A stretch of DNA of 64,000 bases, taken from assembly GCF_044324785.1 (NCBI RefSeq), contig NZ_CP172127.1. The stretch is one strand, 5' to 3'. The DNA comes from Escherichia coli. Lineage in GTDB: Bacteria; Pseudomonadota; Gammaproteobacteria; Enterobacterales; Enterobacteriaceae. Position 1 is the stretch's first letter, and each line of letters opens with the position of its first letter. The notes beneath the pieces are model-generated. The model saw only the letters and a list, made by a program, of their open reading frames with translations. It ran no database searches and was not told the origin of the DNA. Shown here piece by piece: positions 3,087-50,265 of this stretch. The translations under genes were made by a program, and so were the position numbers.

Positions 3087-3162
3087 TGGTGGCCCCTGCT
3101 GGACTTGAACCAGCGACCAAGCGATTATGAGTCGCCTGCTCTAACCACTGAGCTAAGGGGCC
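3087..3162 (-). tRNA. ileX: tRNA-Ile2 (anticodon CAU, lysidine-modified), with encoded CCA
   Basis: Reverse complement reads GGCCCCTTAGCTCAGTGGTTAGAGCAGGCGACTCATAATCGCTTGGTCGCTGGTTCAAGTCCAGCAGGGGCCACCA: cloverleaf with CAT anticodon and 3' CCA. Confidence 0.92.
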
Positions 3163-3286
3163 ATGGTAGCGGATTATAAAGTAACTCCGTGTCGCAATCC
3201 AGCCATTACCGCGCGCCTGCTGTTTTTATAAACAATGTATTTTCAATCCGTTATACTTTTCCTGGTGATGTTAGAAAGGAGTAAAT

Positions 3287-3793: not shown

Positions 3794-3849
3794 AGTGCAG
3801 TGTAACGAAGTTATGAGCGGGCAAAGTACCGCTCCTTACAGATATGGGC

Positions 3850-4413: not shown

Positions 4414-4426
4414 TGCCAGATTTCCT

Positions 4427-4457
4427 TAATAAAAAAGCCCTCACGATGGAGGGCTTA
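4427..4457 (-). terminator. rpoD rho-independent terminator
   Basis: Minus-strand transcript reads aagccctccatcgtgagggcttttttatt: GC-rich hairpin plus U tract directly after the rpoD stop. Confidence 0.75.
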
Positions 4458-4472
4458 TGCATATCTTTACGA

Positions 4473-6314
<1,842 letters not shown>

Positions 6315-9831: not shown

Positions 9832-9840
9832 AACTATCGA

Positions 9841-9864
9841 GTGCCGGAGAGTTACTTCCGGCAC
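9841..9864. terminator. Bidirectional hairpin between convergent tsaD and ttdT
   Basis: gtgccggagagttacttccggcac perfect stem. Confidence 0.5.
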
Positions 9865-9873
9865 CGTCCTTAC

Positions 9874-11337
9874 TTAAAGCAACACCACGGGCATCCACAG
9901 TAAGCCGGTAATCACCAGCAATACGAGGAATATCAGCCCAAAAATCGCCCCCAGTCGCCAGTAATCCGCCGTTGGCAGATAACCACTGCCGTAGTAAATC
10001 GGACTGGGGCCGGTGGCGTATGGTGTAAGAATGCTCCCCAGACCAATTGCCGCACCAACCATCAGGCAGAACACCGGCAGCGGGATTTCCGGCATCGCCA
10101 GCGCAGCGGCAATCATCATCGGTGCGAGGGCGGAGGTATACGCCGTGGCGCTGGCAAAGAAGTAGCGCAGCAGATAAAAGACCACAATCAACGCCACCAT
10201 CACCATCGTCGGCGAATAACCGCTTAAGCTGCCTGCTAACAGTTTGCCAAACCAGCTAATAAAACCGGTGTTGTTGAGTCCGGTAGCGAGGGTGATAAGC
10301 GAGGCCAGCCAGAAGAAAACGTTCCACGCGGCTTTATTACTGACAATGTCGTCCCAACTGATAATGCGCAGAAGCAGCATCAGCGCCACCACGCTGTAAC
10401 CGACCATCGCGGCATCGATATAATCACCGCCGAAAATCCACAGCACCAGCGCGCCTACCATCAGCCCAAGCATCCGTTTTTCACGAGAACAGAGCGGGCC
10501 CATTGCCTGCAGTTCCGTCTCTGCCCAGCGCGGCACCTGATCACCAGACTTCAGTACCGGCGGGTACAGCACGTAAGCCAGCCAGGGAACCAGCAGAACC
10601 AGTAAAATACTGAGCGGCAACATCCCGAGGAACCAGTCGCCCCAACTCAGTGTGGCGTGAGATGCGCTTTTCATCAGGCCAATTAACAGCAAGTTAGGTG
10701 CCATCGCCGTCAGGAAAATGGCGCTGGTCACGCAGTCGGCAACAATCCCCATCCACATGATGTACGAGCCAATGCTGCGTGAACTGCTGTCGTTTGGTTG
10801 TGATTGATAGAGCGGTGGCAGGTTACGGATGATGGGATAGATAATCCCCGCACCGCGCGCCGAGTTGGACGGTGTTACAGGTGCCAGGATCAGCTCGGAG
10901 AACATCACCGCATAGCCGAGAAACAGCGTACGATGCCCCATCTTTTTCACCAGAATCAGCGCGATACGTCGCCCCAGCCCGGTTTTTTCATAGCCTGTGC
11001 CAAACATAAAGGCGGCGAAAATCAGCCAGATAACCGAATTAGAAAAACCAGAAACCGCCCAGGAGAGGGATTTGGCGGTGAACTTAAAACCTGGCTGGGC
11101 GAGCTGCTCCGGGCTAAACAGCAGCCACGGCGAGAGAATGGCGATAATGGAGATACCCACCATCGCCACCACGGCACCCGGCACGGGTTCGAGGATCAGT
11201 CCAACGATCACGCCAGTAAAAACGGCAAAGTAGAGCCAGGTATGACTCTCCAGCCCTGCGGGAACCGGAATTAGAGCAATAATGGCGATGACCGCCAGCG
11301 GCGCAAGGTATCGCCACCATTCAGTGGAAGGTTTCAT
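9874..11337 (-). CDS. ttdT: L-tartrate/succinate antiporter (DASS family anion permease)
   Basis: 487 aa polytopic membrane protein; immediately downstream of ttdAB. Confidence 0.9.
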   Translation of the reverse strand: MKPSTEWWRYLAPLAVIAIIALIPVPAGLESHTWLYFAVFTGVIVGLILEPVPGAVVAMVGISIIAILSPWLLFSPEQLAQPGFKFTAKSLSWAVSGFSNSVIWLIFAAFMFGTGYEKTGLGRRIALILVKKMGHRTLFLGYAVMFSELILAPVTPSNSARGAGIIYPIIRNLPPLYQSQPNDSSSRSIGSYIMWMGIVADCVTSAIFLTAMAPNLLLIGLMKSASHATLSWGDWFLGMLPLSILLVLLVPWLAYVLYPPVLKSGDQVPRWAETELQAMGPLCSREKRMLGLMVGALVLWIFGGDYIDAAMVGYSVVALMLLLRIISWDDIVSNKAAWNVFFWLASLITLATGLNNTGFISWFGKLLAGSLSGYSPTMVMVALIVVFYLLRYFFASATAYTSALAPMMIAAALAMPEIPLPVFCLMVGAAIGLGSILTPYATGPSPIYYGSGYLPTADYWRLGAIFGLIFLVLLVITGLLWMPVVLL

Positions 11338-11385
11338 CGTGTTATGCCTGCGAAAAAGGAGAGGGGGTGAGCCTCTCCGGGAGGG

Positions 11386-11991
11386 TTATTTGATGTAGTG
11401 GACGTGCTCGCAAATCTCTTCCACGATGGGATCGCGGCGTTCGGCGAACAGCTTTTTGTTTTCGGCTATCAGGTTGTTGCCGTGGGTATCAATAGAGACA
11501 ATCAGCGGACCGAACTCTTTGACCCGGCAGACCCACAGCGACTCCGGCATCCCGAGTTCTGTCCAGTGCACTTCTTCAATCTCTTCCACCTGGGTTGCCG
11601 CCAGTACTGCGCAGCCTGCCGGGAAAATCACATGCAGCGCCTTGAATTTCTGGCAGCCTTCTTCGGTCAGCGGCCCCATTCCGCCTTTGCCGACCACCAG
11701 TTTCACGCCGGTCTGTTCGATAAATTCACGTTCAAAACTTTCCATACGCATACTGGTTGTCGGGCCGACGGATACCATCTCCCATTTGTCGCCGTTTTTG
11801 CGCACGATGGGGCCAGCGTGGAAAATCGCTTTGCCGTTGAGATCGTAAGGGATCGGACGTTTCAGTTCGATCAAGCGGCGGTGACAAACGTCGCGGCAGG
11901 TTACCAGCGTACCGGTCAGGTAGATCACATCGCCGACGCGAATATCTTGCAGATCTTCAGCTTTGATCGGGGTTGTCAGGATCTTTTTCAT
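11386..11991 (-). CDS. ttdB: L(+)-tartrate dehydratase beta subunit
   Basis: 201 aa fumarase class I C-terminal-like subunit; start overlaps the ttdA stop. Confidence 0.93.
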
Positions 11992-12899
11992 AACGCGCTC
12001 CGGGTGTGAGACAGATTTTCAAAGGTGAGATCGGCATGAACCAGCAGTGTGCCGCGACGATGCGCCCAGCAGCCTGTAGAAACAGCAACGCCGATGGTTG
12101 ACGGATGGCGGGCGGCAGATTCGATATGTACGCCCATCACTGAACTGTTGCCAGTCAGCCCTTGTGGACCAATCCCCAGACGGTTGAGTCCTTCTTCCAG
12201 GCGTACTTCCAGCTCTGCCGCTTTTGGATTTGGATGGCGGCTGCCAATCGGGCGCAAAATGGCTTTACGCGAGAGCACTGCGGCGGTTTCCACCGAGGTG
12301 GCGATGCCCACGCCTACCAGTACCGGTGGACAGGCGTTTACGGCGAGGGTGGAGATATTTTCGAAGACGAATTTCACCACGCCTTCGTATCCTTCCGACG
12401 GCATTAACACTTTCGAACGACCAGGTAGTGTGCAGCCGCCGCCTGCCATGTAAACTTCGATTTCCGCATCGTCACCGTCGGGGATGATATCCCAAGTGAC
12501 CCACGGTACGCCGCTGCCGGTATTTTTGCCGGTGTTCACTTCGTCAAAAATTTCTACCGCATTGTGACGCAGTGGCGCTTTGACGGTTGCCTCTTCCACG
12601 GCTTGCTTAAGAATGCTTTGCAGCTCGCCAAGCAGTGGGAAACGGGAACCGACCTTAACAAAAAACATGATTTCGCCGGTGTCCTGGCAGGCCGGGCGAT
12701 TCAGGTCGATTGCTTTTTGCATGTTGTCGAACATCGTGTGGTAGATGATTTTCCCCATCGACGACGTTTCGGCATCCTTTAGCTGTTTTAGTTTGTCCAC
12801 CACGTCATCGGGCATTCGGGTAGAAATCATGGCGGTAAAGTTAGCGACAATCTCCGTCAACTTATTCACTGCCTGTTGCTTATTACTTTCGCTCATCAT
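11988..12899 (-). CDS. ttdA: L(+)-tartrate dehydratase alpha subunit
   Basis: 303 aa, starts [11 protein letters not shown]...; Fe-S hydro-lyase alpha-type. Confidence 0.93.
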
Positions 12900-13105
12900 G
12901 GCAACTCCAGTTTATGTATTTGTCTGGAAAAATTCACCGCCACAAACTACCACTAAAAATGTGGTTTTATATTTTTTGCCGCCGTGAATATGTAATTCAC
13001 AGTTCGTGAATCAACGCGAAAATAAGAATGAATATTGCGCCAGAGCAGGGAATGGCAATGTTTTGCGAAATACACTGCGCTTATCACAACTGCGGATAAT
13101 TAACG

Positions 13106-14038
13106 ATGCTGAATAGCTGGCCTTTAGCCAAAGATTTGCAGGTACTGGTAGAAATCGTCCACAGCGGGAGTTTTAGCGCCGCAGCGGCGACGCTTGGGCA
13201 AACGCCTGCATTTGTCACCAAGCGGATCCAAATCCTTGAAAATACGCTGGCAACAACGCTGCTGAACCGCTCCGCTCGCGGCGTGGCGCTGACTGAAAGT
13301 GGCCAACGTTGTTACGAGCATGCGCTGGAAATCCTCACCCAATATCAGCGACTGGTCGATGACGTTACGCAAATCAAAACGCGCCCGGAGGGGATGATTC
13401 GTATTGGCTGTAGTTTTGGTTTTGGGCGCAGCCATATTGCGCCAGCTATTACCGAACTGATGCGCAATTATCCTGAGTTACAAGTGCATTTTGAATTGTT
13501 CGATCGGCAAATTGATTTAGTGCAGGATAATATTGATCTGGATATTCGTATTAATGACGAAATTCCTGATTATTATATTGCGCATCTTTTGACAAAAAAT
13601 AAACGAATATTATGTGCTGCACCTGAGTATCTGCAAAAATATCCGCAGCCACAATCCTTGCAGGAATTAAGTCGTCATGACTGTCTGGTGACCAAAGAGC
13701 GTGATATGACCCACGGAATATGGGAGTTGGGGAACGGTCAGGAGAAAAAATCGGTGAAGGTAAGCGGGCACCTTTCCTCCAATAGTGGTGAGATTGTGCT
13801 GCAATGGGCGCTGGAAGGAAAAGGAATTATGCTGCGTTCTGAGTGGGATGTTTTGCCGTTTCTGGAGAGTGGCAAACTGGTGCGAGTATTGCCGGAGTAT
13901 GCACAAAGCGCCAATATCTGGGCTGTTTACCGGGAGCCGCTCTATCGCAGCATGAAATTACGTGTCTGCGTGGAATTTCTGGCGGCATGGTGCCAGCAAC
14001 GGCTGGGCAAGCCCGACGAAGGCTATCAGGTTATGTAG
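13106..14038 (+). CDS. ttdR: LysR-family activator of the ttd operon
   Basis: 310 aa; LysR HTH N-terminus; divergent from ttdA. Confidence 0.92.
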
Positions 14039-14050
14039 ACTCGCGAAAAA

Positions 14051-14668
14051 TCACTCAGGATCCTTTTCGCGCTTTCTTTTGAATTTCGTCCAGATTTTTG
14101 TCTCTTGACGACGCCACAGACGCTGGATGTTGTCATGATGGCGCAGCAGGATCAGGCATGAGAGCATCGAAACCGGGAAGGTGAATTGTGGTTTAAACCA
14201 CCAGACGTAAAACGGAGCAATCAGTGCACTTACAATCGCTCCCAGCGACGAGTATCCGCTCAATAGCACGGTCAGTAACCAGGTTCCCGCCATTACTCCG
14301 GTGAGATCCCAGCCAATTGGTGCGATGGCACCAAAAGCGGTAGCAACGCCTTTTCCTCCTTTAAAACCGAAGAAAACGGGCCAGATGTGTCCAAGGCAGG
14401 CGGCGATGGCAATTAAGCCTAGCCAGAAGGGGCTGACACCTAATTCATACGCGCCCCAGACGGGCAACATTCCTTTCAGAACGTCGAAAATCAGTACTGC
14501 TACGGCTGCTCCCTTGCCACCGATACGTAACACATTGGTTGCGCCTGGATTGCCGGAGCCGCTGGTTCGCGGATCGGGCAGCCCACACAAGCGGCAAACC
14601 AGAATGGCACTGGAAATGGAGCCGCAGAGGTACGCGATGAGGATCATTCCAGGCGCGATTGCACTCAT
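14051..14668 (-). CDS. plsY: Glycerol-3-phosphate acyltransferase PlsY
   Basis: 205 aa membrane protein of the PlsY family. Confidence 0.93.
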
Positions 14669-14772
14669 AAGCTGTTCCGTTTTGAAAATTCGTGTTCAAC
14701 GATGAATCTGTGGATAATACGCACATTTCGCCGGAAGTGGTATCCGGTTAGCCAAAAAGCAGGCAGGACGTG

Positions 14773-15141
14773 ATGGATATTGTATTTATAGAGCAACTTT
14801 CGGTAATCACCACTATTGGTGTTTACGACTGGGAACAGACCATCGAACAGAAGTTAGTGTTCGATATCGAAATGGCGTGGGATAACCGTAAAGCGGCGAA
14901 AAGTGATGATGTGGCGGATTGCCTCAGTTACGCTGACATTGCAGAAACGGTGGTCAGCCATGTTGAGGGAGCGCGTTTTGCGTTGGTGGAGCGCGTGGCG
15001 GAAGAGGTGGCAGAATTACTGCTAACACGCTTTAACTCACCGTGGGTACGTATCAAACTCAGTAAGCCAGGCGCGGTGGCACGTGCCACGAATGTCGGCG
15101 TCATTATTGAGCGTGGCAATAATCCTAAAGAAAATAATTAA
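14773..15141 (+). CDS. folB: Dihydroneopterin aldolase
   Basis: 122 aa from ATG 14773 (MDIVFIEQLSVITTIGVYDWEQ...); the track start at 14770 is an in-frame GTG one codon upstream. Confidence 0.93.
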   Translation: MDIVFIEQLSVITTIGVYDWEQTIEQKLVFDIEMAWDNRKAAKSDDVADCLSYADIAETVVSHVEGARFALVERVAEEVAELLLTRFNSPWVRIKLSKPGAVARATNVGVIIERGNNPKENN

Positions 15142-15231
15142 TTTTACAGTTATAAAACCAAACGGCTATAACCGAGTCTTATTGCAGTATTTTTGACGAG
15201 CAATACATTTTTATTATTTAGGGGTTTATTG

Positions 15232-16053
15232 ATGAGCGATATGCACTCGCTGCTGGTAGCGGCAATATTGGGTGTGGTCGAAGGATTGACAGAATTTCTG
15301 CCGGTATCCAGCACAGGCCACATGATTATTGTCGGTCATTTGTTGGGATTTGAGGGAGATACGGCGAAAACCTTTGAAGTGGTGATCCAGTTAGGATCGA
15401 TTCTGGCTGTGGTTGTCATGTTCTGGCGACGTCTGTTTGGGCTGATCGGTATTCACTTTGGTCGCCCGTTGCAGCACGAAGGAGAAAGCAAAGGCCGTTT
15501 AACGCTGATCCACATTCTGCTTGGCATGATCCCGGCGGTGGTGCTGGGGTTGTTATTCCATGATGCTATCAAGTCCTTGTTTAATCCGATAAATGTGATG
15601 TATGCGCTGGTCGTTGGCGGTTTGTTGCTGATTGCCGCCGAATGCCTGAAACCAAAAGAACCGCGTGCGCCGGGTCTCGATGATATGACCTATCGTCAGG
15701 CGTTTATGATTGGTTGCTTCCAGTGTCTGGCGCTGTGGCCGGGTTTCTCTCGCTCCGGGGCGACCATTTCAGGTGGGATGCTGATGGGCGTGAGCCGTTA
15801 CGCTGCTTCCGAGTTCTCGTTCCTGCTGGCGGTGCCGATGATGATGGGTGCAACGGCGCTCGATCTCTACAAAAGCTGGGGCTTCCTGACAACCGGCGAT
15901 ATCCCGATGTTTGCCGTTGGGTTTATCACCGCTTTTGTGGTGGCGCTGATAGCGATTAAAACCTTCCTGCAATTGATTAAGCGCATTTCGTTTATCCCTT
16001 TCGCCATTTATCGCTTTATTGTGGCGGCTGCGGTGTATGTCGTGTTCTTTTGA
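15232..16053 (+). CDS. uppP: Undecaprenyl-diphosphate phosphatase
   Basis: 273 aa from ATG 15232 ([30 protein letters not shown]...); track ORF begins at an upstream TTG. Confidence 0.93.
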
Positions 16054-16065
16054 TTGAGGAATAGT

Positions 16066-16105
16066 GTCGGATATGACGCTTGTGCGTCTTATCCGACCTG
16101 GCCGG
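16066..16105. repeat. REP-like palindromic element between uppP and cca
   Basis: gtcggatatgacgcttgtgcgtcttatccgacctggccgg. Confidence 0.45.
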
Positions 16106-16133
16106 TGTCTGCAATATATTGAAATTCAAGTGC

Positions 16134-17372
16134 TTAATCAGGCTTTGGGCAACGTTGTTCCTTCCAGTTGGCTACCGCCGCAATCCGCCGTCGGGTCAGC
16201 TCCTCGCGAATCTCCACACCTTTAAATCCCGCTTCAACGACCGCTTTTGTCGGCACTGACTGCGCCACTTCCCAGGCTTCGCGCAACCAGCGGCCTTGCG
16301 GGTAGTCCGCTGATTCAAAACCGGTTCTGCCGCGCACGTCAGCCTCGCTGGTCAGCGCCAGTTGCTCGACACGCTGCGGTTTACGCCAGGCGTCAATGGA
16401 ATCAAATAATTTGACGATGGTTTTTGGGTTCAGCATTGGGAAGGTGTGGATGAGATCGTGAAACTCAGCCACCAGTCGGGCTAAATCGCGAATTTCATTT
16501 GGCACGCGCAGACGCTGGCATAGTTGTTCCACTAACTTCACACCCGCCGGGCCATGACCATGATGACGCGGCCAAAGTTCTGGCGGCGTCAGTCCTTTAC
16601 CGAGATCGTGGCATAGCGTTGCGAAACGGACATCGACCTGCGGACTCAGCATCGCCGCCATTGAGAGCGTCATTAAGGTGTGAATACCGGTGTCGATTTC
16701 CGGATGCCACCTGGCAGGGGCCGGAACGCCAAACAGGGCGTCAATTTCCGGGAATAAAACGCGCAGTGCGCCGCAATCACGCAGTACCTGGAAGAACACC
16801 TGGGGATTGCGGGTAGTGAGGGCGCTTTCCGTCTCTTTCCACACCCGTTCAGGCGTCAGGTGTTCCAGTTCACCCGCGTGGATCATCTCGCGCATCAGCG
16901 CCAGAGTTTCATCGGCAATACGAAAACCGAGGTGGGCATAACGCGCAGCAAAACGCGCCACGCGCAGTACGCGTAACGGATCTTCGCCAAAAGCGGGGGA
17001 AACATGGCGCAACAGACGATTTTGCAGATCGCCCAGACCGTTGTACGGGTCGATAATCTCGCCGTTATCGTCCTGGGCCAGCGCATTAATGGTCAGATCG
17101 CGCCGCTTAAGATCATCTTCCAGCGTGACATCCGGTGCGGCATAGCAGGTAAAACCGGTGTAACCGGAACCGGATTTCCGTTCGGTTCGTGCCAGCGCAT
17201 ACTCTTCATGGGTTTGCGGATGCAGAAAAACAGGAAAATCGCGGCCTACCTGCTGGTAGCCCGCGTCGAGCATCTCCTGTGGCGTACTGCCGACTACTAC
17301 CCAATCTCTGTCTTTGACCGGTAGCCCTAACAATGCATCCCGAACAGCACCACCGACCAGATAAATCTTCAC
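16134..17372 (-). CDS. cca: tRNA nucleotidyltransferase (CCA-adding enzyme) with HD domain
   Basis: 412 aa; [28 protein letters not shown]... Confidence 0.96.
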
Positions 17373-17435
17373 GCCATCATCCCTTCGTCAAATACACAAT
17401 TCCTAATAATAAGACAGTGCAACGAAGAAGGCGAT

Positions 17436-18056
17436 TTAGTTCATCCAGCGATCTTTACGTTTACGCGTTGGGATCAGGTGCGGCAGTACCAGGCCGAGCA
17501 GCAAGCCAAGCCCCAGCACGCCACCGCCATACATAAACCACTGCATGATGATGGTGCGCTGTTTGTCATCCAGCTGTACGCTGGCGGCATCGACCTTTTT
17601 CTGCGCGACAATCAGCTCGTTTTTCAGTTTCTGATTTTCTTCTTTTAACCCGTTGATCACGCTGTCGCTCTGCGCCACTTTTTGCTGCATTTCTGCGGTG
17701 CGCTGATTCCAGGTGTTATCGATATTGGTGAGCTTATCGGTCAGGGTTTTGACCTGATTTTCCAGATCTGGCACACGGGAGCGCAGGCTTGGCTCTGTGC
17801 TAAGTTGTTTCAACGGGATCCAGGCGGTACGGCCAGAGCTGTCTTTCACCTGGGCATAATTGGTGTTGGCGTCAGTTTGTAATAAGGTCACTTCCTCGCC
17901 GGCGTTAACCGTGCCCACGAGGCGATAATGGTCTCCCGGACCGCTACGGACCCAGGTGTTCAGTTCGTCAGAAACATAGCGCGTTTCTTCAGCGTGTGAG
18001 ACGGCAGTCGCGCTAAGTGCGAGTAAAGTTAATCCGATCAGGCGTAATTTTGGCAT
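17436..18056 (-). CDS. ygiM: SH3-domain protein YgiM (signal peptide, C-terminal TM anchor)
   Basis: 206 aa; N-terminal signal peptide, coiled-coil, C-terminal hydrophobic segment. Confidence 0.88.
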   Translation of the reverse strand: MPKLRLIGLTLLALSATAVSHAEETRYVSDELNTWVRSGPGDHYRLVGTVNAGEEVTLLQTDANTNYAQVKDSSGRTAWIPLKQLSTEPSLRSRVPDLENQVKTLTDKLTNIDNTWNQRTAEMQQKVAQSDSVINGLKEENQKLKNELIVAQKKVDAASVQLDDKQRTIIMQWFMYGGGVLGLGLLLGLVLPHLIPTRKRKDRWMN

Positions 18057-38364: not shown

Positions 38365-40260
<1,896 letters not shown>

Positions 40261-40288
40261 TAATCCTCCCGGCAGAAGAATAAAACAT

Positions 40289-40322
40289 AGCCCGGTATAC
40301 AAGTGTATACCGGGCTTTTTTG
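40289..40322. terminator. Hairpin plus T-tract after parE, probably bidirectional with the convergent receptor gene
   Basis: agcccggtatacaagtgtataccgggct followed by TTTTTTT. Confidence 0.7.
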
Positions 40323-40323
40323 A

Positions 40324-42465
40324 TCAAAATTCCATTTTCACCGTGAATTGCACTGCACGCGGATCGCCAATCTGATTCCCCAGATTATTTGTGGCGATGG
40401 AAGAGGTGTAATACGTTTTATCAAACAGGTTTTTGACGTTTAATTGCAGTGTGACCGGATACTGCAATTTCATTTTGTATGCGGCGAAGGCATCGGCAAC
40501 GAAATAGCCAGGCAGATAATAGTCAGCCCCATTGGTTGCCGAACGACGGCTTACGCCATGTCCACCACCGCCAAACGTCAGTGTGTTATTGCCTGGCATG
40601 TTATGAATGTCATAGGTCAGGAATAGCGAACCGGTATGACGAGGAACATTCGGCAATGGTTTCCCTGCATAATCAGGATCTTCCAGAACCTTAGCATCGG
40701 TATAGCCGTAGCTGGCAATGATATTAATGTTTTCAGTTAATGCTCCCGCAAGGTCGACTTCTACCCCTCTTGAACGAACGCGGCCTGCCGTTTTGGCGAT
40801 GGTTTCATCACCAATACTTTCGGTATACAACACGTTACGTTTATGGATATCAAACAGCGCAATATCTGCGGTTATACCATCGAACAGCTCGAATTTTGCC
40901 CCGACTTCGTAAGCATTAGATGATTCCGGTGGAAGATCTCCGATGTAGCTGGCAATTGACGATTGCGGCATAAATGTTTGCGAATAATTAGCAAATAAGG
41001 ATACCGATGGCGTCAGTTTGTAGACTAACCCCAGTTTGGGCGTCCATTGTTCATCGCGGCTGTCAGTATTGACATTAAAAGGACGGCCTTTACCCGCATA
41101 CTGCGTGTAATACTGATAGCGGATCCCGGCGACGGCAATCCAGTTATCGGTCAGATAGAGCGCGTCCTGTGCATACGCTGAGTAGCTCTCCTGTTTGATC
41201 GTCTGATCACTGTCCGACGCCGAAACCGTTGTGCATTTGCTGGTAATACCATAAACGGGGTTGTAGATATTGAAATCTTTAGCTTTTTTACAGCGAATCA
41301 TATCTGTGCGCAGAAGATCATAATATTCATATGACACCCCACCCAGAATCTCATTATAGAATCCGGCAATATCAACATTCCCTTGCAGATCCGCACGAGT
41401 AGCATGCATACGCTGGGTAGATCCTTGGGTTGCATCAACACGCCGTGTCAGCGTTCCTGTCGTTGCATCATATGCGGTAACACGCGCCTGATTATCGCTG
41501 TATTTATCCTGGCTGTAGCTGTAATCAAAGCGCGCTGTCCACTGGCTATTGAGATGATATTCTGCGTTGAGTTGCGCCAGATCGGACTGACCATCTGTAA
41601 TATTAAACGGTTCGTCAAAACGTATTTTTCGATCAACGTTTACGGGCTGTTTCGTCGTAAGGTCGAAAATCGTTCCACGATCGAACGGAGTTTTATAGTC
41701 CCGATGGGAATAGAGCATGGTTACTGTTGCATTATCACCAAACCAGGTGAGTGACGGGGCAATAAATGTACTGCGCTCTTTACCGAAGTTTCGCCAGTAA
41801 TCTTCATCCTGCACTTCCCCGGTAAGGCGATACGCCAGCTGAGTGCCTTCAATGGGACCTGTGATATCAAGTTGCCCAGTGCCGCCACCAAAACTGGAGG
41901 AGGTGGCTGAAACCGAACCATGGAATGTTTTTTCCGGGCGCTTGGTCACGACGTTAATCAGTCCACCAGGATCGAGAATGCCATACAGCGTGGAGGCCGG
42001 ACCTTTTAGCACTTCCACACGTTCTGTGGCGGCGTTGAAACTGCGAGGAAGTACAGTTCGCAGGCCGTTGGTCATGATGGAGCCATCCCGGTTAGCACCA
42101 AACCCACGACGTACAAAGGCGTCCTGAGTTCCGCCTAATGTATTGGTCTGTACCACGTTACTGACGTTATAAAGCGCTTCATCCAGCGTCGTCGCATTCT
42201 GATTTTCCAGAACCTGATCGCTAACCGTATTGACCACCTGCGGGATATCCAGCATCGGCATATCGGTTAATGTCGCCGTGGAAGTGCTCAGAGGTTGATA
42301 ACCATCGGTCGCCTCAGTTGCGGTATTTGCATCCGCTGTAACAGTGATTGTTTCGCCATCTTTGGTCGTTGCAGTGTCGGTTGCATGAATCATTGGTGCT
42401 GCAAAGAGCAGTGAAAAGAGCGCCCGACCTTTGATTCCTGAGAATGAAGGTGTGAACTTAGCCAT
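40324..42465 (-). CDS. TonB-dependent outer-membrane siderophore receptor
   Basis: 713 aa; signal peptide, plug domain, beta-barrel, C-terminal aromatic residue (...FTVKMEF). Confidence 0.88.
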   Translation of the reverse strand: MAKFTPSFSGIKGRALFSLLFAAPMIHATDTATTKDGETITVTADANTATEATDGYQPLSTSTATLTDMPMLDIPQVVNTVSDQVLENQNATTLDEALYNVSNVVQTNTLGGTQDAFVRRGFGANRDGSIMTNGLRTVLPRSFNAATERVEVLKGPASTLYGILDPGGLINVVTKRPEKTFHGSVSATSSSFGGGTGQLDITGPIEGTQLAYRLTGEVQDEDYWRNFGKERSTFIAPSLTWFGDNATVTMLYSHRDYKTPFDRGTIFDLTTKQPVNVDRKIRFDEPFNITDGQSDLAQLNAEYHLNSQWTARFDYSYSQDKYSDNQARVTAYDATTGTLTRRVDATQGSTQRMHATRADLQGNVDIAGFYNEILGGVSYEYYDLLRTDMIRCKKAKDFNIYNPVYGITSKCTTVSASDSDQTIKQESYSAYAQDALYLTDNWIAVAGIRYQYYTQYAGKGRPFNVNTDSRDEQWTPKLGLVYKLTPSVSLFANYSQTFMPQSSIASYIGDLPPESSNAYEVGAKFELFDGITADIALFDIHKRNVLYTESIGDETIAKTAGRVRSRGVEVDLAGALTENINIIASYGYTDAKVLEDPDYAGKPLPNVPRHTGSLFLTYDIHNMPGNNTLTFGGGGHGVSRRSATNGADYYLPGYFVADAFAAYKMKLQYPVTLQLNVKNLFDKTYYTSSIATNNLGNQIGDPRAVQFTVKMEF

Positions 42466-42563
42466 TTAGTCTGTTATCCCAAAAACTCACGGATTGTCGT
42501 GAGTGAAAATTGTTTCTTGTTGCTCACTAAGCACTATCCGTTTGTTATCTCACCATCGGATAT

Positions 42564-42584
42564 GTAATTGAGAATCATTCAATC
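42564..42584. promoter_or_regulatory. Fur-box-like site in the divergent promoter region between the receptor and the ABC operon
   Basis: gtaattgagaatcattcaatc compared with consensus GATAATGATAATCATTATC; embedded in an AT-rich 370-bp intergenic region. Confidence 0.5.
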
Positions 42585-42838
42585 ATGCGGTGATGTAGTA
42601 GTAAATGAGAAATAACAAAAAATTGCTACATGTGTTTTTATGAGAGGTTAATGCAATTCAATTGATTGTAATTTATTAATATTTAATGGTTTTATTTTTA
42701 TCTTTAAAAATATTTCACCTGTTATTTACCTTGTTTTTGTATGGCTTTTAACTTCTTGACTACTACATTTTGTGGCGTCAAACTCTCAAAGGAGAATGAG
42801 TTTTATTTTTGTTTGTCTTTGATTAAGTTGGCGTACAC

Positions 42839-43648
42839 GTGGCACATAACGCAAAAGGGCAGGGGCTGATCCTCGACAATGTTTCTGCCGGGTATCACAC
42901 GAAAATCATTGTTGATGGTGTTTCTTTCTCCGTTCCCACAGAAAAAATGACCGTTCTGGTTGGGGCAAACGGCTGTGGAAAGTCGACGTTGCTCAGCACC
43001 ATTGCACGTATCTTGCAACCTATGGGCGGCTCGATATTGCTGGATGGTAAAGCGATTCACGAGCAACCAACGAAAGCGTTATCCCGTAGACTTGGGATCT
43101 TGCCGCAGTCGCCATTATTGCCGGAGGGATTAACCGTTTATGAACTGGTGTCGCGTGGGCGTTTTCCCTGGCAGAATTTCATTCGTCAATGGAGCGACGC
43201 CGACGAGCAGGCGGTAGAAGAGGCCCTGAAATTAACCGGTACGCAGGAGTTTGCACATTTACCTGTTGAAAAACTTTCTGGTGGGCAGCGCCAGCGTTGC
43301 TGGATTGCGATGGTGTTGGCGCAAAAGACGCCTTATATCCTGCTGGATGAACCCACAACCTGGCTTGATTTACGTTATCAGGTTGAAATTCTTGAGTTAT
43401 TACATGATTTAACGCGTCATCACGGGCGTACAGTCGTCGTGGTGTTGCATGATCTGAATTTTGCCGTCAATTATGGTGATACGTTGATATTTTTACGCCA
43501 GGGGAAAGTGGTGCGTGTGTTGAATGAGGGGGAACATTGCACGCCTGAGCTGGTAAAAGCTGTCTTTGACGTTGATGTTCACGCATCAATAAATCCTCTG
43601 ACGGGAAAGCCGTTCTTCATGCCGTTTCGTGGTGTAGAAAAAGTATGA
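42839..43648 (+). CDS. ABC transporter ATP-binding protein, FepC/FecE-like
   Basis: 269 aa; Walker A GANGCGKST, signature LSGGQRQR, Walker B ILLDEPT; GTG start at 42839 is the most upstream in-frame start. Confidence 0.88.
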   Translation: MAHNAKGQGLILDNVSAGYHTKIIVDGVSFSVPTEKMTVLVGANGCGKSTLLSTIARILQPMGGSILLDGKAIHEQPTKALSRRLGILPQSPLLPEGLTVYELVSRGRFPWQNFIRQWSDADEQAVEEALKLTGTQEFAHLPVEKLSGGQRQRCWIAMVLAQKTPYILLDEPTTWLDLRYQVEILELLHDLTRHHGRTVVVVLHDLNFAVNYGDTLIFLRQGKVVRVLNEGEHCTPELVKAVFDVDVHASINPLTGKPFFMPFRGVEKV

Positions 43649-44628
43649 TGCGCACAGGGCTGGTTACTGTAATTTTCCTCGCCTTACTGCTGGTGGGATG
43701 CGTGGTATATCCAGGGATTGGTGCCCGATTTATTGCACCACAAACGGTGTTGCAGGCATTTCTTCATTTTGATCCGCAAAACTTCGATCACAACGTAATT
43801 GTAAGACTCCGTTTGCCGCGTTTAGCGGCAGCATTGCTTACCGGTGCTTCTCTTGGAGTTGCTGGTGCTTTGTTGCAGGCTGTCATTCGTAACCCATTGG
43901 GGGAGCCACATATTTTAGGCTTAAATGCCGGAGCCGCTCTTGCTGTCGTTGCTGCCAGTGCGCTTGGGCTGGCCTTTCCGGTTGGACGCCCACTGCTGGC
44001 ATCTACGGGCGGCGCGTTATTGTTCCTGTTGATATTGCTGCTTTCCTCCGCAGGGCGTTCAGGGTTAACGCCAATGAAAGTTACTTTATGCGGCGTGGCG
44101 CTATCGGCGTTCGTGTCCTCAATAACGGCTGCAATCCTGATTCTTGACGAACAAACACTGCTGGCGATGCGGACATGGCTAGCAGGTGATTTAGCGGGGC
44201 AGGATTGGGCGACGCTGGGTACGTCCGCCTGGTTTTCTCTGGGGGGGGTTGTGTTAGCCATTTACCTTGCGCCCTCTCTTAACATGTTGGCACTGGGTGA
44301 TCGCATGGCGCAGGGGCTGGGCGTCTCGGTACTCCGCACGCGAACATTCACTCTGCTTGCGATCGCGTTGCTCTGTGGCGCAGCCGTATCGATTGCTGGC
44401 CCCATTGGTTTTGTCGGTCTGCTAGTACCGCAGATTGTCAGGCGTCTGGTATCTGCGGATCTGCGCGTTCTGCTCCCTCTTTCAGCTTGTGTCGGTGCCT
44501 TACTGCTATTACTGGCAGATATTATTGCCCGGACGCTTTTCACGCCCCATGAGCTGGCGACCGGTGTCATGACGGCGTTAGTTGGTGCGCCCGTTTTTGT
44601 CATTATGGCGACGAGGATGTTCAAATGA
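43645..44628 (+). CDS. ABC transporter permease (FecCD family)
   Basis: 327 aa polytopic membrane protein; start overlaps the upstream stop. Confidence 0.85.
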   Translation: MMRTGLVTVIFLALLLVGCVVYPGIGARFIAPQTVLQAFLHFDPQNFDHNVIVRLRLPRLAAALLTGASLGVAGALLQAVIRNPLGEPHILGLNAGAALAVVAASALGLAFPVGRPLLASTGGALLFLLILLLSSAGRSGLTPMKVTLCGVALSAFVSSITAAILILDEQTLLAMRTWLAGDLAGQDWATLGTSAWFSLGGVVLAIYLAPSLNMLALGDRMAQGLGVSVLRTRTFTLLAIALLCGAAVSIAGPIGFVGLLVPQIVRRLVSADLRVLLPLSACVGALLLLLADIIARTLFTPHELATGVMTALVGAPVFVIMATRMFK

Positions 44629-45674
44629 GTCGGATAATGAACGTCGGGCTACGTCCACTACGTGTTGGTAAGTTTTCGACACTGGTACGCCCTAAAAATC
44701 TGGTGTTGCTTGGTGGGCTGTTTCTGTTTGCGGTTGGAATACTGATATTCGGTCTGATGCATGGTTCTTTTTCTGTCCCGGCATCGGAAGTAGGACGAGC
44801 GTTGTTTGCTCCAGAAAACGTAAGCACAGACGCACGTTATATTGTGCAGGATATTCGCTTGCCGAGAGTCATCATGGCATTGCTATGCGGAGCCATGTTA
44901 GGTATGGCGGGGGCCGCGATGCAATCCATTGCGCGTAACGGCCTTGCCGATCCTGGTTTAATCGGCGTCAAAGAAGGATGTAGCGTGGCGGTGCTGTGGC
45001 TGATTTTCCAGTTTCCAATGCTGGGAATGTTCTGGCGTCCAGTGGCTGGTCTTGCTGGTGGCTTGTTGGTGGCTTTAATCGTGATTTTTTGTGCGCGCGA
45101 TATTTCCCGCCCGCGATTTGTTCTGATTGGTATTGGTGTTTCCTGGTTTTTCGCCGCCGGTATCGGTGTATTTATGACCACTGCAGATGTTCGAGATGTA
45201 CAAACTGCATTGATGTGGTTATCGGGAAGCCTGCATGCAGCTAACTGGATGTTAGTCGGTATTTCAGCCTGTTGGATGTTGCCAGCCGCTCTTTTATTGC
45301 TGTTCACCGCCAGGACGGCGGATATCGCTCTGCTTGGTCATCAGGTGGCAACCGGGTTAGGCGTGAATAGTTCTCGCCTGGCGTTGTTACGTGTCGCCGC
45401 ACCCATAATCCTGACAGCCGTCTGCGTTTCGTGTGTTGGTAACATCGGTTTTGTCGGATTGATAGCACCCCATATATCACGTTTTATTCTACGTGGCGGG
45501 CAGACGACATTACTGCTGGGGAGCGCGGTATCGGGGGCGTTGTTAGTCATCCTGGCGGATAGCATTGGTCGTTTGGCTTTTTTGCCTTTGCAACTGCCTG
45601 CCGGAATCATTATTTCATTGATTGGTGGACCATTCTTTTTGCTACTGCTCTGGCAGCGCAGGAACAGTTTTTAA
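44625..45674 (+). CDS. ABC transporter permease (FecCD family), second subunit
   Basis: 349 aa polytopic membrane protein; start overlaps the upstream stop. Confidence 0.85.
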   Translation: MSRIMNVGLRPLRVGKFSTLVRPKNLVLLGGLFLFAVGILIFGLMHGSFSVPASEVGRALFAPENVSTDARYIVQDIRLPRVIMALLCGAMLGMAGAAMQSIARNGLADPGLIGVKEGCSVAVLWLIFQFPMLGMFWRPVAGLAGGLLVALIVIFCARDISRPRFVLIGIGVSWFFAAGIGVFMTTADVRDVQTALMWLSGSLHAANWMLVGISACWMLPAALLLLFTARTADIALLGHQVATGLGVNSSRLALLRVAAPIILTAVCVSCVGNIGFVGLIAPHISRFILRGGQTTLLLGSAVSGALLVILADSIGRLAFLPLQLPAGIIISLIGGPFFLLLLWQRRNSF

Positions 45675-45684
45675 TGGGAGTTAT

Positions 45685-46632
45685 ATGCGTTTATTTTTTT
45701 CTCTGCTGATACTGTTGTCATTCTTTGCCCGCGCGACAGAACCTGTTCAGGTCTTTACTGATGATTTAGGGCGCAAAGTCACTGTTCCTGCTCATCCAAA
45801 GAGAATTGTCTCTTTACACGATCTTGATATCACTATTCCTCTGATTGAGCTCGGTGTACCTCCTGTCGCCAGCCACGGGCGAACCCGGCCTGACGGTAGC
45901 CATTTCATTCGATCAGGCGCGTTATTGACAGGTGTCGACTTTGATAATTCATCGATCGCTTTTATTGGCACCGCTGATATTGATATTGAAGCGATTGTGG
46001 CGGCAAAGCCTGACCTGATCATCACAGAACCGACCCGTAATACGCCCATTGAACAACTGGAAAAAATTGCGCCCACGGTGAGCATTGATCATCTCAAAGG
46101 CGGCGCGCCAGAAATCTACCGCAAGCTGGCAGAACTTACAGGAACGCAGTCGCAGCTGGCGATACTTGAACGCCGCTATCAGGCACAAATCAATGCGCTG
46201 AAGGCGACGCTGGACAGCCAAAAAATAACGGTATCGGTGATTCAGGCAAATCAGGGAAAAATTAATGTGATGCATAGCTATCATTCGCTGGGGCGGGTAT
46301 TACGCGATGCTGGTTTTCGCTTTCCGCCGCTGATTGAGAGCATTCCTGAAGGTGGGCGAATGGATGTGAGCGCAGAGCGTTTACCTGAACTGGATGCCGA
46401 TTTTGTTTTTGCAACCTGGCGCGGTGACACCGGTGGTAAACCTCAGGATGAGCTGGCAGCAATGGAAAAAGTCATGCCGGGATGGTGTCAGTTTCTGACG
46501 GCCTGTCGTTCCGGGCGCTATGTGCTGATTTCTCGTGAAGAGGCGATTTCTAACTCCTTTGCATCTCTGGGGCTGATGGCTGCGCAGATACAATCACAAA
46601 TTGCGGGACGACCTCTACCGGAGGCTAAATGA
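45685..46632 (+). CDS. Periplasmic substrate-binding protein (siderophore/chelate-binding cluster)
   Basis: 315 aa from ATG 45685 (MRLFFSLLILLSFFARA signal peptide) preceded by aatgggag RBS; track ORF extends upstream. Confidence 0.8.
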   Translation: MRLFFSLLILLSFFARATEPVQVFTDDLGRKVTVPAHPKRIVSLHDLDITIPLIELGVPPVASHGRTRPDGSHFIRSGALLTGVDFDNSSIAFIGTADIDIEAIVAAKPDLIITEPTRNTPIEQLEKIAPTVSIDHLKGGAPEIYRKLAELTGTQSQLAILERRYQAQINALKATLDSQKITVSVIQANQGKINVMHSYHSLGRVLRDAGFRFPPLIESIPEGGRMDVSAERLPELDADFVFATWRGDTGGKPQDELAAMEKVMPGWCQFLTACRSGRYVLISREEAISNSFASLGLMAAQIQSQIAGRPLPEAK

Positions 46633-47516
46633 TCCAGAAAGACAAAACGCGGGTTGATATTTATGGTGAGCGTTTTCGCACTCGCGCGAGTCAGTTAACG
46701 CCTGGGTTAAGAACTGTCGCAAGCTACATTAATGAGCATCGTGAAGTGGTACTCGAGCAAACGGCGATGGAAATTGCGGCCACGTTGAACACTTCCGATG
46801 CCACAGTTATCAGGGCTATACAGGCTCTGGGGTTTGCCGGGCTGCGTGATCTGAAACGCACTCTGGAACAGTGGCTTGGTCCAGCCCTTAGTTCCAGCGA
46901 AAAGATGTCTACGACGGTGAGTAACTTGACGAGCGATGTTAACACCGCAATCGACTTTGTTCTTGAAGGGCATTTGTATACTTGTAATGTCCTGTCAGAG
47001 CCTGAAAACCGCCACGCGCTTGCGCAAGCTGTAGCGTTGTTGGTGCAGGCACGGCAAGTCGCTATTTTTGGCATTGGCGCTTCGGGTATCCTGGCGGACT
47101 ATACCGCACGACTATTCAACCGCATAGGTTTGCCTGCCACGGCACTAAACCGTACGGGTATTGGCCTTGCCGAGCAACTGATCGCGCTTCAACGTGGCGA
47201 TGTTCTGATCATGATGGCGCAAAAATCTGCGCACCGGGAAGGGCTGACAACGCTTCGTGAGGCGAGGCGGCTGGGGATCCCTGTTATTTTGCTGACAAAC
47301 GCGCTGGATTCACGTTTTAGCAAAGACGCCAGTATCGTGATTCATGTTCCGCGCGGGGATGAAAAGGGGAAAACGCCACTACATGGTACGGTATTGTTGT
47401 GCCTGGAAATGATTGTTTGGTCGGTGGCTTCCGCGATGCCGCAGCGTGCGGTTAAAACCATTAAGCGAATTAACGATTTCCATCGGGGTTTGAAAACGGG
47501 AAGAAAGAATGGCTAA
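46629..47516 (+). CDS. RpiR/MurR-family transcriptional regulator (N-terminal HTH, C-terminal SIS domain)
   Basis: 295 aa; SIS-type nucleotide/sugar-phosphate-binding fold recognisable (…VAIFGIGASG…); start overlaps the SBP stop. Confidence 0.8.
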   Translation: MIQKDKTRVDIYGERFRTRASQLTPGLRTVASYINEHREVVLEQTAMEIAATLNTSDATVIRAIQALGFAGLRDLKRTLEQWLGPALSSSEKMSTTVSNLTSDVNTAIDFVLEGHLYTCNVLSEPENRHALAQAVALLVQARQVAIFGIGASGILADYTARLFNRIGLPATALNRTGIGLAEQLIALQRGDVLIMMAQKSAHREGLTTLREARRLGIPVILLTNALDSRFSKDASIVIHVPRGDEKGKTPLHGTVLLCLEMIVWSVASAMPQRAVKTIKRINDFHRGLKTGRKNG

Positions 47517-47524
47517 TCTGACCT

Positions 47525-47553
47525 GAGGCCGGTAGCAACACCGGCCTCTTTTC
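47525..47553. terminator. Hairpin plus T-tract between the regulator and ygiN
   Basis: gaggccggtagcaacaccggcctc followed by TTTTC. Confidence 0.65.
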
Positions 47554-47560: not shown

Positions 47561-47875
47561 TTAAATCCCCGGTTGCAGAATACGGATATTCATCTCCAGC
47601 ACGTCGCCTTTTACGGCTTCGCTGTACGCCTTCATGTGCGGGGTTTGCAGATGCGCTTCAAGATGCGCGATGCTTTCCCACTGCTCAATCATCACGATAG
47701 AATCCGGTGCCATAGACTGGAAACTCACGCCAGCAGCGCAATCCACCATTGGCGCATAGCCGTGGCAACCTTCTTCTTTCAGTACGGTTGGAACGATTTT
47801 AGCAAACTGATCCAATACCGCCTGACGGTGATGTTGACCAGGACGAGTACGGATTTCTGCGATTACGGTAAGCAT
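47561..47875 (-). CDS. ygiN: Quinol monooxygenase YgiN
   Basis: 104 aa MLTVIAEIRTRPGQHHRQAVLDQF... Confidence 0.93.
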   Translation of the reverse strand: MLTVIAEIRTRPGQHHRQAVLDQFAKIVPTVLKEEGCHGYAPMVDCAAGVSFQSMAPDSIVMIEQWESIAHLEAHLQTPHMKAYSEAVKGDVLEMNIRILQPGI

Positions 47876-48736: not shown

Positions 48737-49216
48737 ATGTCAAATATCATATACTTATCAATTAAAGGAAAAACACAAGGTTTGATCTCTGAGGGCTGTG
48801 GTTCGTATGCATCTATTGGTAATAAATATCAAATAAATCATGTGGATGAAATTTTTGTTTTACAGTTCGACCATTCTTTAAGTCGAGAATATAATGTAGT
48901 GCATCATCCCATAAAATTTTACAAGCCAATAGATAAATCCTCTCCTTTATTAAATGCTGCTCTTTCTGAAAATGAAGAGTTATCAGCTGTATTTAATTTT
49001 TATAGAATTAATTCTGGCGGTTGTATTGAAAGGTTTTACACAATTGAATTGCAAGGGGCATATTTATCGAATATTCTGACTTGTTATCCACACTCAATTA
49101 CACATGCGGGTAATCAACCGGAAGAGGTCATTGTTCTTAATTATAAAAATATAACATGGAAGCACCATATCGCGAGTACGGAATCATATAGCTGTTGGGA
49201 AGAAAGGATTTTTTAA
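48737..49216 (+). CDS. hcp: Hcp-family protein (type VI secretion tube protein), orphan copy
   Basis: 159 aa; conserved Hcp blocks: N-terminal Y-x-I-K-G...QGLI-x-GC, FVLQFDH, HHPIKFYKPIDKSSPLLNAAL, VIVLNYKNITWKH; RBS ggag 7 nt upstream; AT-rich context. Confidence 0.85.
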   Translation: MSNIIYLSIKGKTQGLISEGCGSYASIGNKYQINHVDEIFVLQFDHSLSREYNVVHHPIKFYKPIDKSSPLLNAALSENEELSAVFNFYRINSGGCIERFYTIELQGAYLSNILTCYPHSITHAGNQPEEVIVLNYKNITWKHHIASTESYSCWEERIF

Positions 49217-49218
49217 AT

Positions 49219-49926
49219 ATGAAAAGCGATCTCACTATAAAAAATAGATATTGTACAATTCCACAAACGAAGTTCCGTAAATGGGATGAAATGGACGTTT
49301 TACTCTGGAAGTTAGGAAAAAATGATTCGCGTCGCCGTTCAGGAGTATATTATTTAAATGCTTATAAAGATGCATATGTACAATATAATAGGGACAAAAT
49401 AATTAAACATGCATATGCCGCAGGGATTCGTCCAGAGTTATTGGGCGGCGTGGCCTGGATTGAGTCAGGAGGTATGCCTGAAAATTATAAGTTTCAGATA
49501 TATGAAACAAAAAGAATGATCGGATCGTTAGATATGCCTGAAAATAAAACATCATTTGGCTCAATGGGTATACAAATACGAACCGCAGCGATTACTCTAG
49601 GCCTTGACCCTTCAGAATTAACTACCAGAAATCAGTTAGAGTTAGCGACATGCCTGATGGAAGATGATTTTACCTTTAAAATTGCTGCTACTCATTTAAG
49701 AGATCTTGCCCTTTTTGATTATCCCTCTTCGGCAACACTGTATATGACGAATGAGCAGTATATTATGGCTGGTATTAGATATAATCGTGGTGTTGAACGA
49801 GATTTGGGTTTTTTTATTTATTTAATTAATAATTTGCCTGCGCGTGATACAGATGATTATAAATTCATCTCTTATGGTATGAGGTTGTTAGAGATTAGAG
49901 AACATATCAAAAAATTGATTAATTAG
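49219..49926 (+). CDS. Hypothetical protein with lytic-transglycosylase/lysozyme-like motifs; candidate Hcp-associated effector
   Basis: 235 aa from ATG 49219 (RBS ggaagaaagga); motifs WIESGG, SMGIQI and AGIRYNRG with spacing like the ES / GLMQ / AYNxG motifs of family-1 lytic transglycosylases; start 3 nt after the hcp stop. Confidence 0.6.
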   Translation: MKSDLTIKNRYCTIPQTKFRKWDEMDVLLWKLGKNDSRRRSGVYYLNAYKDAYVQYNRDKIIKHAYAAGIRPELLGGVAWIESGGMPENYKFQIYETKRMIGSLDMPENKTSFGSMGIQIRTAAITLGLDPSELTTRNQLELATCLMEDDFTFKIAATHLRDLALFDYPSSATLYMTNEQYIMAGIRYNRGVERDLGFFIYLINNLPARDTDDYKFISYGMRLLEIREHIKKLIN

Positions 49927-49935
49927 TAATCAGAG

Positions 49936-50265
49936 ATGTTAAAAAAACAACTACTATCAATATTTGAAGCACTATTATACATAATGCTTACTTATTGGTT
50001 AATAGATGCTTTTTTTGCTTTCAATAAGTATGACTGGATGCTTGAGTCGGGAGACAATATTTGCAGTATACCTTCCGTTTCAGGCGAAGATCGTATATTG
50101 CAAGCAATGATTGCAGCATTTTTTCTTCTGACGCCACTTATTATTCTTATCTTAAGAAAACTCTTTATGCGGGAAATGTTCGAGTTTTGGCTATATGTAT
50201 TCACGCTCGTTATTTGTTTGGTTTGTGGTTGGTGGCTTTTTTGGGGACGGTTTATATTTTGCTAA
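49936..50265 (+). CDS. Small 3-TM inner-membrane protein; candidate cognate immunity protein (possibly the YgiZ orthologue)
   Basis: 109 aa with three hydrophobic helices; immediately downstream of the putative effector; AT-rich. Confidence 0.55.
   Translation: MLKKQLLSIFEALLYIMLTYWLIDAFFAFNKYDWMLESGDNICSIPSVSGEDRILQAMIAAFFLLTPLIILILRKLFMREMFEFWLYVFTLVICLVCGWWLFWGRFIFC

Follow-up and report, generated by a model that had tools for sequence, protein, structure and literature searches.

Between parE and ygiN in Escherichia coli: the chromosomal fit ferric-chelate uptake locus, more probably an old resident of the interval than an insert

The genes parE and ygiN lie side by side in E. coli K-12, where only 47 bp separate them (strain W3110). 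In the window analyzed here, that is, the whole 64,000-nucleotide stretch of E. coli contig NZ_CP172127.1 (RefSeq assembly GCF_044324785.1), the same two genes are held apart by a block of six genes that fills positions 40324-47516 exactly. The initial annotation of this stretch had correctly stated that the block is missing from K-12 at this place, had suggested, from the terminators at its ends, that it is a horizontally acquired uptake module, and had ventured the name fit. Two questions are raised by such a locus: what does it encode, and which of the two arrangements, with or without it, is the derived one? Our main finding is that positions 40324-47516 are the chromosomal fit locus (fitA, fitBCDE and fitR) of E. 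coli, and a ferric-chelate uptake system organized as fitA / fitBCDE-fitR is, with high confidence, the best overall explanation of what we observe. The locus itself is already known: it was reportedly first named by Ouyang and Isaacson (in Infect Immun, 2006), its regulator was described by the same authors in 2008 (Open Microbiol J, PMC2593036) and the structure of its binding protein in 2009. As to its history, we find that it is more probably an old resident of the parE-ygiN interval, with the K-12 arrangement a deleted state.

Four lines of evidence show that the tentative name was right. The 17 published fit primers (PMC2593036) all map in the expected order within the six genes and the promoter, with 0 to 3 mismatches: the fitA quantitative PCR primers at 41645-41721 (0 mismatches), the 'fit promoter' primers at 42487-42845, bracketing the fitA-fitB intergenic region, and those of fitB at 42996-43082 (0 mismatches), fitC at 44264-44359 (2 mismatches each), fitD at 45329-45388, fitE at 46232-46303 and fitR at 46686-46703, 46732-46819 and 47496-47513 (0 mismatches). 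Mature FitE (residues 19-315) is identical at 295 of 297 positions to the protein of PDB entries 3BE5/3BE6, which is named Ec-FitE in PMC10553834 and whose structure comes from Shi et al. (Proteins 2009). The region shares 97.3% nucleotide identity with that of strain CFT073, the six proteins being 97-99% identical, and the locus is 97-99.5% identical at the nucleotide level to those of other fit-positive genomes; in CFT073, Fur directly targets c3771-c3775, which are designated the Fit pathway (PMC7157518). Finally, its length of 7193 bp is that of the 'fit operon' region which a 2026 genome paper reports in strain BEN2908 as common to strains of extraintestinal pathogenic E. coli (ExPEC) and adherent-invasive E. 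coli (AIEC), and missing from MG1655. The window copy thus has the gene content, order, orientation, size, sequence and parE-adjacent position of the published system as found in CFT073, and differs from it by strain-level polymorphism only; it is another allele.

The gene organization that had been read from the sequence was confirmed for all six open reading frames (ORFs), which are intact and full length: a receptor gene on the minus strand, then a divergent operon for an ATPase, two FecCD permeases, a binding protein and a regulator. In the ORF list of the 37-50.5 kb region, no other ORF lies within the block. On the minus strand, fitA (40324-42465) encodes a TonB-dependent outer-membrane siderophore receptor of 713 amino acids. 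The plus-strand operon consists of fitB (42839-43648, GTG start), for an ATP-binding cassette (ABC) transporter ATPase of 269 amino acids; fitC (43645-44628) and fitD (44637-45674), for FecCD-family permeases of 327 and 345 amino acids, the latter counted from the ATG at 44637 that is the start in RefSeq (NCBI Prokaryotic Genome Annotation Pipeline, PGAP); fitE (45685-46632), for a periplasmic substrate-binding protein of 315 amino acids with signal peptide MRLFFSLLILLSFFARA, the mechanically called ORF of which begins at a TTG at 45622; and fitR (46629-47516), for a MurR/RpiR-family repressor of 295 amino acids with HTH_6 and SIS domains. These are also the roles given in the FitR paper (PMC2593036): FitA as receptor, FitB as ATPase, FitC and FitD as permeases, FitE as binding protein and FitR as regulator. 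Upstream of the block lie cpdA, yqiA and parE (38368-40260, plus strand), and downstream ygiN (47561-47875, minus strand) followed by mdaB.

The overlapping start and stop codons announced for the operon stand only in part. The junction sequences show an ATGA overlap at fitB/fitC and at fitE/fitR; at fitC/fitD the outcome depends on the start chosen, since an alternative ATG at 44625 gives an ATGA overlap with the fitC stop while the PGAP start at 44637 lies 8 nucleotides past it; and fitD and fitE do not overlap at all, being separated by a 10-nucleotide gap with a GGGAG Shine-Dalgarno sequence. Translation of fitB, the first gene of the operon, may be weak in E. coli, because in Escherichia as in Enterobacter it has a GTG start and no recognisable Shine-Dalgarno sequence (window 42815-42841). 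In Kosakonia, Citrobacter and Erwinia, the fitB orthologues show AGGAG and then ATG where the sequences align.

To what extent is the locus present in the species, and how did it come to lie where it does? Among 5426 complete E. coli genomes, the whole fit locus was found in 1870, about a third, including those of O157:H7 and CFT073, while 3268 have the intact, empty 47-bp parE-ygiN junction. A third state is encountered in 405 genomes, where an unrelated 8.3-kb module sits at parE-ygiN (9101-17431 of locus L042 from strain F437, 9501-17787 of locus L043 from strain 16843; the corresponding junction in the window is at about 40261-40323). It encodes a DUF2608 protein, a porin, a phytase-like esterase, a sugar kinase, a SIS protein, an ADP-ribosylglycohydrolase, a GntR regulator and an MFS transporter. 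This module takes the place of fit in some genomes and stands in tandem with it in others, in the order parE-module-fit-ygiN (roughly 118 genomes, by arithmetic). Because an unrelated module also occupies the interval in some strains, the parE-ygiN interval is to be seen as a variable hotspot with several states. Such figures lend themselves to the view that fit is a recent, horizontally acquired island inserted into an ancestral K-12-like junction: it is absent from the genomes that keep the intact junction, its genes form a compact unit, complete in itself, with a terminator at either end, and the interval that it occupies behaves as a hotspot.

The comparison with other genera points mostly the other way. 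A scan with FitA, with one genome per species, gave 39 loci, for which a synteny table was established by tblastn. In Enterobacter and Lelliottia the order is parE-fitA-fitBCDER-ygiN-mdaB, that is, the identical place and orientation, at 70-90% protein identity, which argues against a recent arrival in E. coli. Silvania and Huaxiibacter have parE-fitA-fitBCDER, and neither ygiN nor mdaB had a match in those loci. As a separate observation, an additional stretch of 1.4-6.9 kb separates parE from fitA in four loci, which come from Enterobacter and a metagenome-assembled genome. The 3.6-6.9 kb of Enterobacter DNA at this place was considered as a possible counterpart of the E. coli 8.3-kb module, and this was rejected for want of any match; the parE-fitA junction is therefore variable in Enterobacter too, with DNA that is not homologous to that module.

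The borders and the composition of the locus bear on the same question. No tRNA gene, integrase, insertion sequence (IS) element or other mobility gene was found at the borders of fit, nor any direct repeat of at least 7 bp common to both, nor a target-site duplication. Its GC content is 48-55%, for a window mean of 51%; by comparison, a segment with an hcp gene located 1.2 kb further on, which is clearly foreign, is at 32-35%. The locus thus lacks the integrase or transposase, the tRNA or attachment site, the direct repeats and the deviant composition by which mobile genomic islands are recognized. Divergence gives a concordant picture: relative to CFT073, nucleotide identity is 97.3-98.0% for the fit genes and 96.2-99.7% for the flanks (parE, ygiN and mdaB), and relative to two divergent Escherichia genomes with fit at parE-ygiN, it is 91-97% and 92-98%, respectively, so that the divergence of fit follows that of its neighbors in both comparisons.

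Because mobility hallmarks are missing, GC content is near average, fit and its flanks have diverged together and the gene order is the same in Enterobacter and Lelliottia, the K-12 arrangement is more probably the derived, deleted state, and fit an old resident of the interval. Several points weigh against this. The GC content at third codon positions of the fit genes (0.46-0.53) is somewhat under that of the flanks (0.52-0.64). In Citrobacter, Kosakonia, Kluyvera, Yokenella, Erwinia, Pantoea and Affinibrenneria the same six genes are found together in other, unrelated chromosomal contexts, so that the module changed place at one time or another in the history of the family. Lastly, within Escherichia the evidence on history comes from E. 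coli and the two divergent genomes above. With these points set in the balance, recent insertion of an island into a K-12-like junction appears unlikely to us, while keeping some weight.

The terminators at the two ends, which the initial annotation had taken as a sign of horizontal acquisition, do exist: there is a strong hairpin followed by a T-run on either side. The reading built upon them fares poorly in the face of the missing mobility hallmarks, the divergence that tracks the flanks and the synteny shared with Enterobacter and Lelliottia. On the left, a bidirectional hairpin terminator at 40289-40316 lies in the 63-bp gap between the stop of parE (40260) and that of fitA (40324); its 12-bp stem includes 7 GC pairs and is followed by TTTTTT, and its predicted folding is strong on either strand (-23.8 kcal/mol on the plus strand, z -7.7; -22.7 kcal/mol on the minus strand; z about -7). 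On the right, in the 44-bp gap between fitR and ygiN, a plus-strand hairpin at 47525-47548 (GAGGCCGGU-AGCAAC-ACCGGCCUC, then UUUU) ends 12 nucleotides before the stop codon of ygiN, with a 9-bp stem, a TTTT tail and a folding energy of -23.3 kcal/mol (z -4.5); it was overlooked by a consensus terminator scan because the stem absorbs the first T of the tail. When remnants of fit were sought in the 47-bp spacer of K-12, only the left arm AACATAGCCCGGT of the left hairpin was found in common (4 of 2000 shuffles score equally), the right side being not significant (300 of 2000 shuffles). This comparison would be compatible with an insertion as well as with a deletion.

How the locus is controlled is partly documented by earlier work. 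In strain i484, where expression and regulation of fit were shown, dipyridyl induces expression about 3-fold; mutation of fur raises fitA 23-fold, and that of fur and fitR together 52-fold; Fur represses fit independently of FitR; and FitR is an autorepressor, the overexpression of which lowers fitB 3.2-fold and the knockout of which derepresses fitB. As seen by electrophoretic mobility shift assay, FitR binds the fitA-fitB intergenic fragment, and it represses both divergent promoters (all from PMC2593036). In the window this promoter-operator region is the 373 bp of positions 42466-42838, with a GC content of 36-38%. Alignment of the region from 22 loci of more than 12 genera revealed four invariant blocks amid DNA that otherwise could not be aligned. 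The positions of promoters, Fur boxes and FitR operators given below are inferred from this cross-genus conservation.

Two invariant blocks resemble Fur boxes. The first, TTGAATGATTCTCAATTACA (42563-42582, minus strand), would comprise the -10 element of the fitA promoter (TTGAAT) overlapping a Fur-box-like sequence, and agrees with the Fur consensus at 12 of 19 positions. The second, GAGAATGAGTTTTATTTTT (42792-42810, plus strand), lies just downstream of the putative -10 element of the fitB promoter (CAAACT, 42779-42784), and agrees with the consensus at 13 of 19 positions on the minus strand; it too is invariant across genera. These 12-13 of 19 are the best scores that a scan with the 19-bp consensus returned, and sites at 12 of 19, which occur 2.2 times per kb in the window, are not significant by themselves; since such matches are common by chance, Fur boxes are not claimable here from sequence alone.

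A more specific signal is a 13-nucleotide motif, ATGTAGTAGT(A/C)AA, conserved from Escherichia to Erwinia and present as an inverted pair with one copy over each putative -35 element. Copy 1 is ATGTAGTAGTAAA (42593-42605, plus strand), whose complement TTTACTACTACAT holds the predicted -35 of the fitA promoter (TTTACT); copy 2 is ATGTAGTAGTCAA (42756-42768, minus strand), whose plus strand TTGACTACTACAT holds that of the fitB promoter (TTGACT). The window has these two matches, for 0.07 expected, and none elsewhere. In its exact form the motif is present in 35 of the 41 loci fetched, and there solely in the fitA-fitB intergenic region; when up to 2 mismatches are allowed, the pair is found in this region of every fit-bearing locus. 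We therefore regard the two copies as good candidate FitR operators, 1 and 2, which were not mapped in the 2008 paper. Their start-to-start spacing, 163 bp in the window, falls in two classes, 162-164 bp (n = 22) and 184-186 bp (n = 19), with no intermediates; the classes differ by about two helical turns, and the intervening DNA is not conserved. Because the spacing is fixed in this way, FitR may need both motifs on the same face of the helix.

Taken together, a plausible scheme would be as follows. Two divergent sigma-70 promoters would lie in the 373-bp intergenic region, and Fur-Fe2+ would shut both off under iron sufficiency; a repressor of RpiR type, FitR, made from the last gene of the operon, would repress the same two promoters independently of Fur. 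FitR has HTH_6 at residues 14-81 (3.6e-10) and SIS at residues 138-247 (1.3e-13), and MurR/RpiR regulators of the PDB match it at E 2e-15; the SIS domain is presumably the sensor of a small effector, anionic or phosphosugar-like. If same-face binding of FitR were true, the result would be a repression loop that spans the entire divergent control region. That FitR loops between both motifs, and that a phosphosugar-like signal received by its SIS domain ties chelate import to carbon or cell-envelope metabolism, is a speculative combination that we hold to be rather doubtful. We know of no phosphosugar-coupled control described for other enterobacterial iron systems.

What, then, is the cargo? 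All the components of a FecCD/BtuCD-type (type II) ABC importer are present, namely two FecCD permeases, an ATPase and a cluster-A (Peripla_BP_2-like) binding protein. The best NCBIfam matches of FitB are to FecE (7e-85), FepC and FhuC-type ATPases, down to E 1e-61, and those of FitC and FitD, at E 1e-70 to 1e-43, are to models of FecC, FecD, FhuB and BtuC. As all three proteins score under the equivalog cutoffs, their membership is established at the family level only. FitA is a member of the TonB-dependent siderophore receptor subfamily TIGR01783 (372.8 bits for a cutoff of 223.5). FitE is assigned by its family matches to the iron-siderophore type of binding protein; after itself, its nearest solved relatives are YfiY and FhuD-type hydroxamate binders (E 1e-15 to 1e-13), which are siderophore-binding proteins. 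By family membership, FitA, powered by TonB-ExbBD, would carry a ferric siderophore over the outer membrane, FitE would capture the chelate in the periplasm, and a heterodimeric FitC/FitD permease with two copies of FitB would import it. The cargo of FitA would probably be a xenosiderophore, our best guess being one of the hydroxamate or carboxylate-hydroxamate type.

Some findings weigh against the siderophore class, or against a siderophore at all. None of the substrate-specific receptor equivalogs (FhuA, FoxA, FhuE, Fiu, FecA, FepA/CirA, BtuB and heme) is reached by FitA at cutoff, the scores being 236.6 bits for 884 with PRK14050, the best, 228 for 803 with FhuA and 167 for 1300 with FoxA; judged by these models, FitA is orthologous to no characterised receptor. 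As it is under every substrate-specific cutoff, the siderophore class remains a guess from weak similarity (to FoxA and FhuA for the receptor, to YfiY and FhuD for the binding protein). Among solved structures, FoxA, CntO, the enantio-pyochelin receptor and FhuA come nearest to it, about equally distant at some 168 bits, so that FitA is as similar to CntO, the receptor of the Zn/Ni/Co metallophore pseudopaline, as to FoxA. The substrate was stated in 2018 not to be enterobactin (PMC5907654), and fit is described in 2026 as 'related to Fe2+, Co2+ and Cd2+ uptake' (PMC12928451). No later identification of the substrate was found in the literature searched. Siderophore-biosynthesis genes, sought beside fit in Kosakonia and Citrobacter, where it sits elsewhere, were not found; the neighbors there are AraC regulators, DNA methyltransferases, a GGDEF protein and a NapH-like protein.

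One might accordingly suppose that the cargo is a metal-chelate of another kind (a metallophore of Co, Ni, Zn or Cd) or a nutrient other than a metal, iron regulation being incidental; the tie between FoxA and CntO, the 2026 statement, the absence of an identified substrate and the sugar-phosphate type of FitR, unusual for an iron system, could all be cited in this sense. However, it is documented that Fur controls fit directly and that iron chelation induces it, FitA exceeds the cutoff of the siderophore receptor subfamily, and ferric siderophores are the ligands of all the solved proteins nearest to FitE. We consider such a cargo very unlikely, and uptake of a ferric siderophore remains the preferred reading. 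In three loci, from Erwinia, Affinibrenneria and Pantoea, additional ORFs lie between fitE and fitR; in Erwinia (2600-5666 of locus L030) they are a 379-amino-acid ORF with no NCBIfam match and two ORFs for PstS-like binding proteins. These ORFs may stand for an accessory step of iron release, one that the E. coli version lacks.

That fit would be, in the source strain, a remnant that is decaying or functionally silent, as the fitR frameshift annotated for one genome at least (that of strain 16843, with the 8.3-kb module as well as fit) and the start of fitB in Escherichia and Enterobacter could suggest, is scarcely credible in view of the six full-length ORFs with proteins 97-99% identical to those of CFT073, of the promoter blocks invariant across genera, of the expression and regulation demonstrated in strain i484, and of an identity to Enterobacter that is higher for amino acids than for nucleotides (89-90% versus 77-79% for FitA, 85-86% versus 77-78% for FitE), which indicates purifying selection.

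Three known systems help to place fit. FhuA/FhuCDB of K-12 has, like fit, a TonB-dependent receptor, a cluster-A binding protein, a FecCD-type permease, an ATPase and Fur control, and the characterised proteins nearest to FitA and FitE include FhuA and FhuD-type proteins. The homology is nevertheless distant (the FhuA score given above; E 1e-13 between FitE and FhuD of B. subtilis), and fit differs by its two separate permease genes, where FhuB is fused, by the divergent transcription of its receptor gene and by its dedicated RpiR-type repressor. The fecIR-fecABCDE system comes closer in some respects: FecE and FecC are the best NCBIfam matches of FitB and FitC, the two permease genes are separate in both, and fec, like fit, has its own regulator, being among the few E. 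coli iron systems so equipped. Yet FitB, FitC and FitD are under the FecE, FecC and FecD equivalog cutoffs, FitE is under the FecB subfamily cutoff and FitA far under that of FecA; moreover, fec is induced by an extracytoplasmic function (ECF) sigma/anti-sigma cascade via the N-terminal extension of FecA, whereas fit has a cytoplasmic HTH_6-SIS repressor. With the MurR/RpiR regulators (MurR, HexR, RpiR and Vibrio NanR), FitR has in common the HTH_6 and SIS architecture and the repression of a divergent promoter region; phosphosugars are the signals of the known members, which govern sugar catabolism, whereas FitR governs a metal-chelate importer.

The low-GC segment mentioned above is a separate feature of the window. 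It occupies positions 48737-50265, between mdaB and qseC, at 32-35% GC, and comprises an Hcp/TssD gene (TIGR03344, 199 bits), ygiZ (DUF2645) and a 235-amino-acid ORF for which no Pfam or NCBIfam match was found. In the same interval K-12 keeps ygiZ only, while CFT073 has all three genes. It may be an orphan module of Hcp, effector and immunity genes.

As fit is routinely listed in comparative genomics of ExPEC, AIEC and avian pathogenic E. coli (APEC), its identification here carries little weight as a discovery. The conserved pair of 13-nucleotide motifs provides a concrete target for footprinting. As for the species, a region labelled 'accessory' is probably ancestral and would have been lost from K-12-like lineages, so that K-12 would not represent the default state of this interval.

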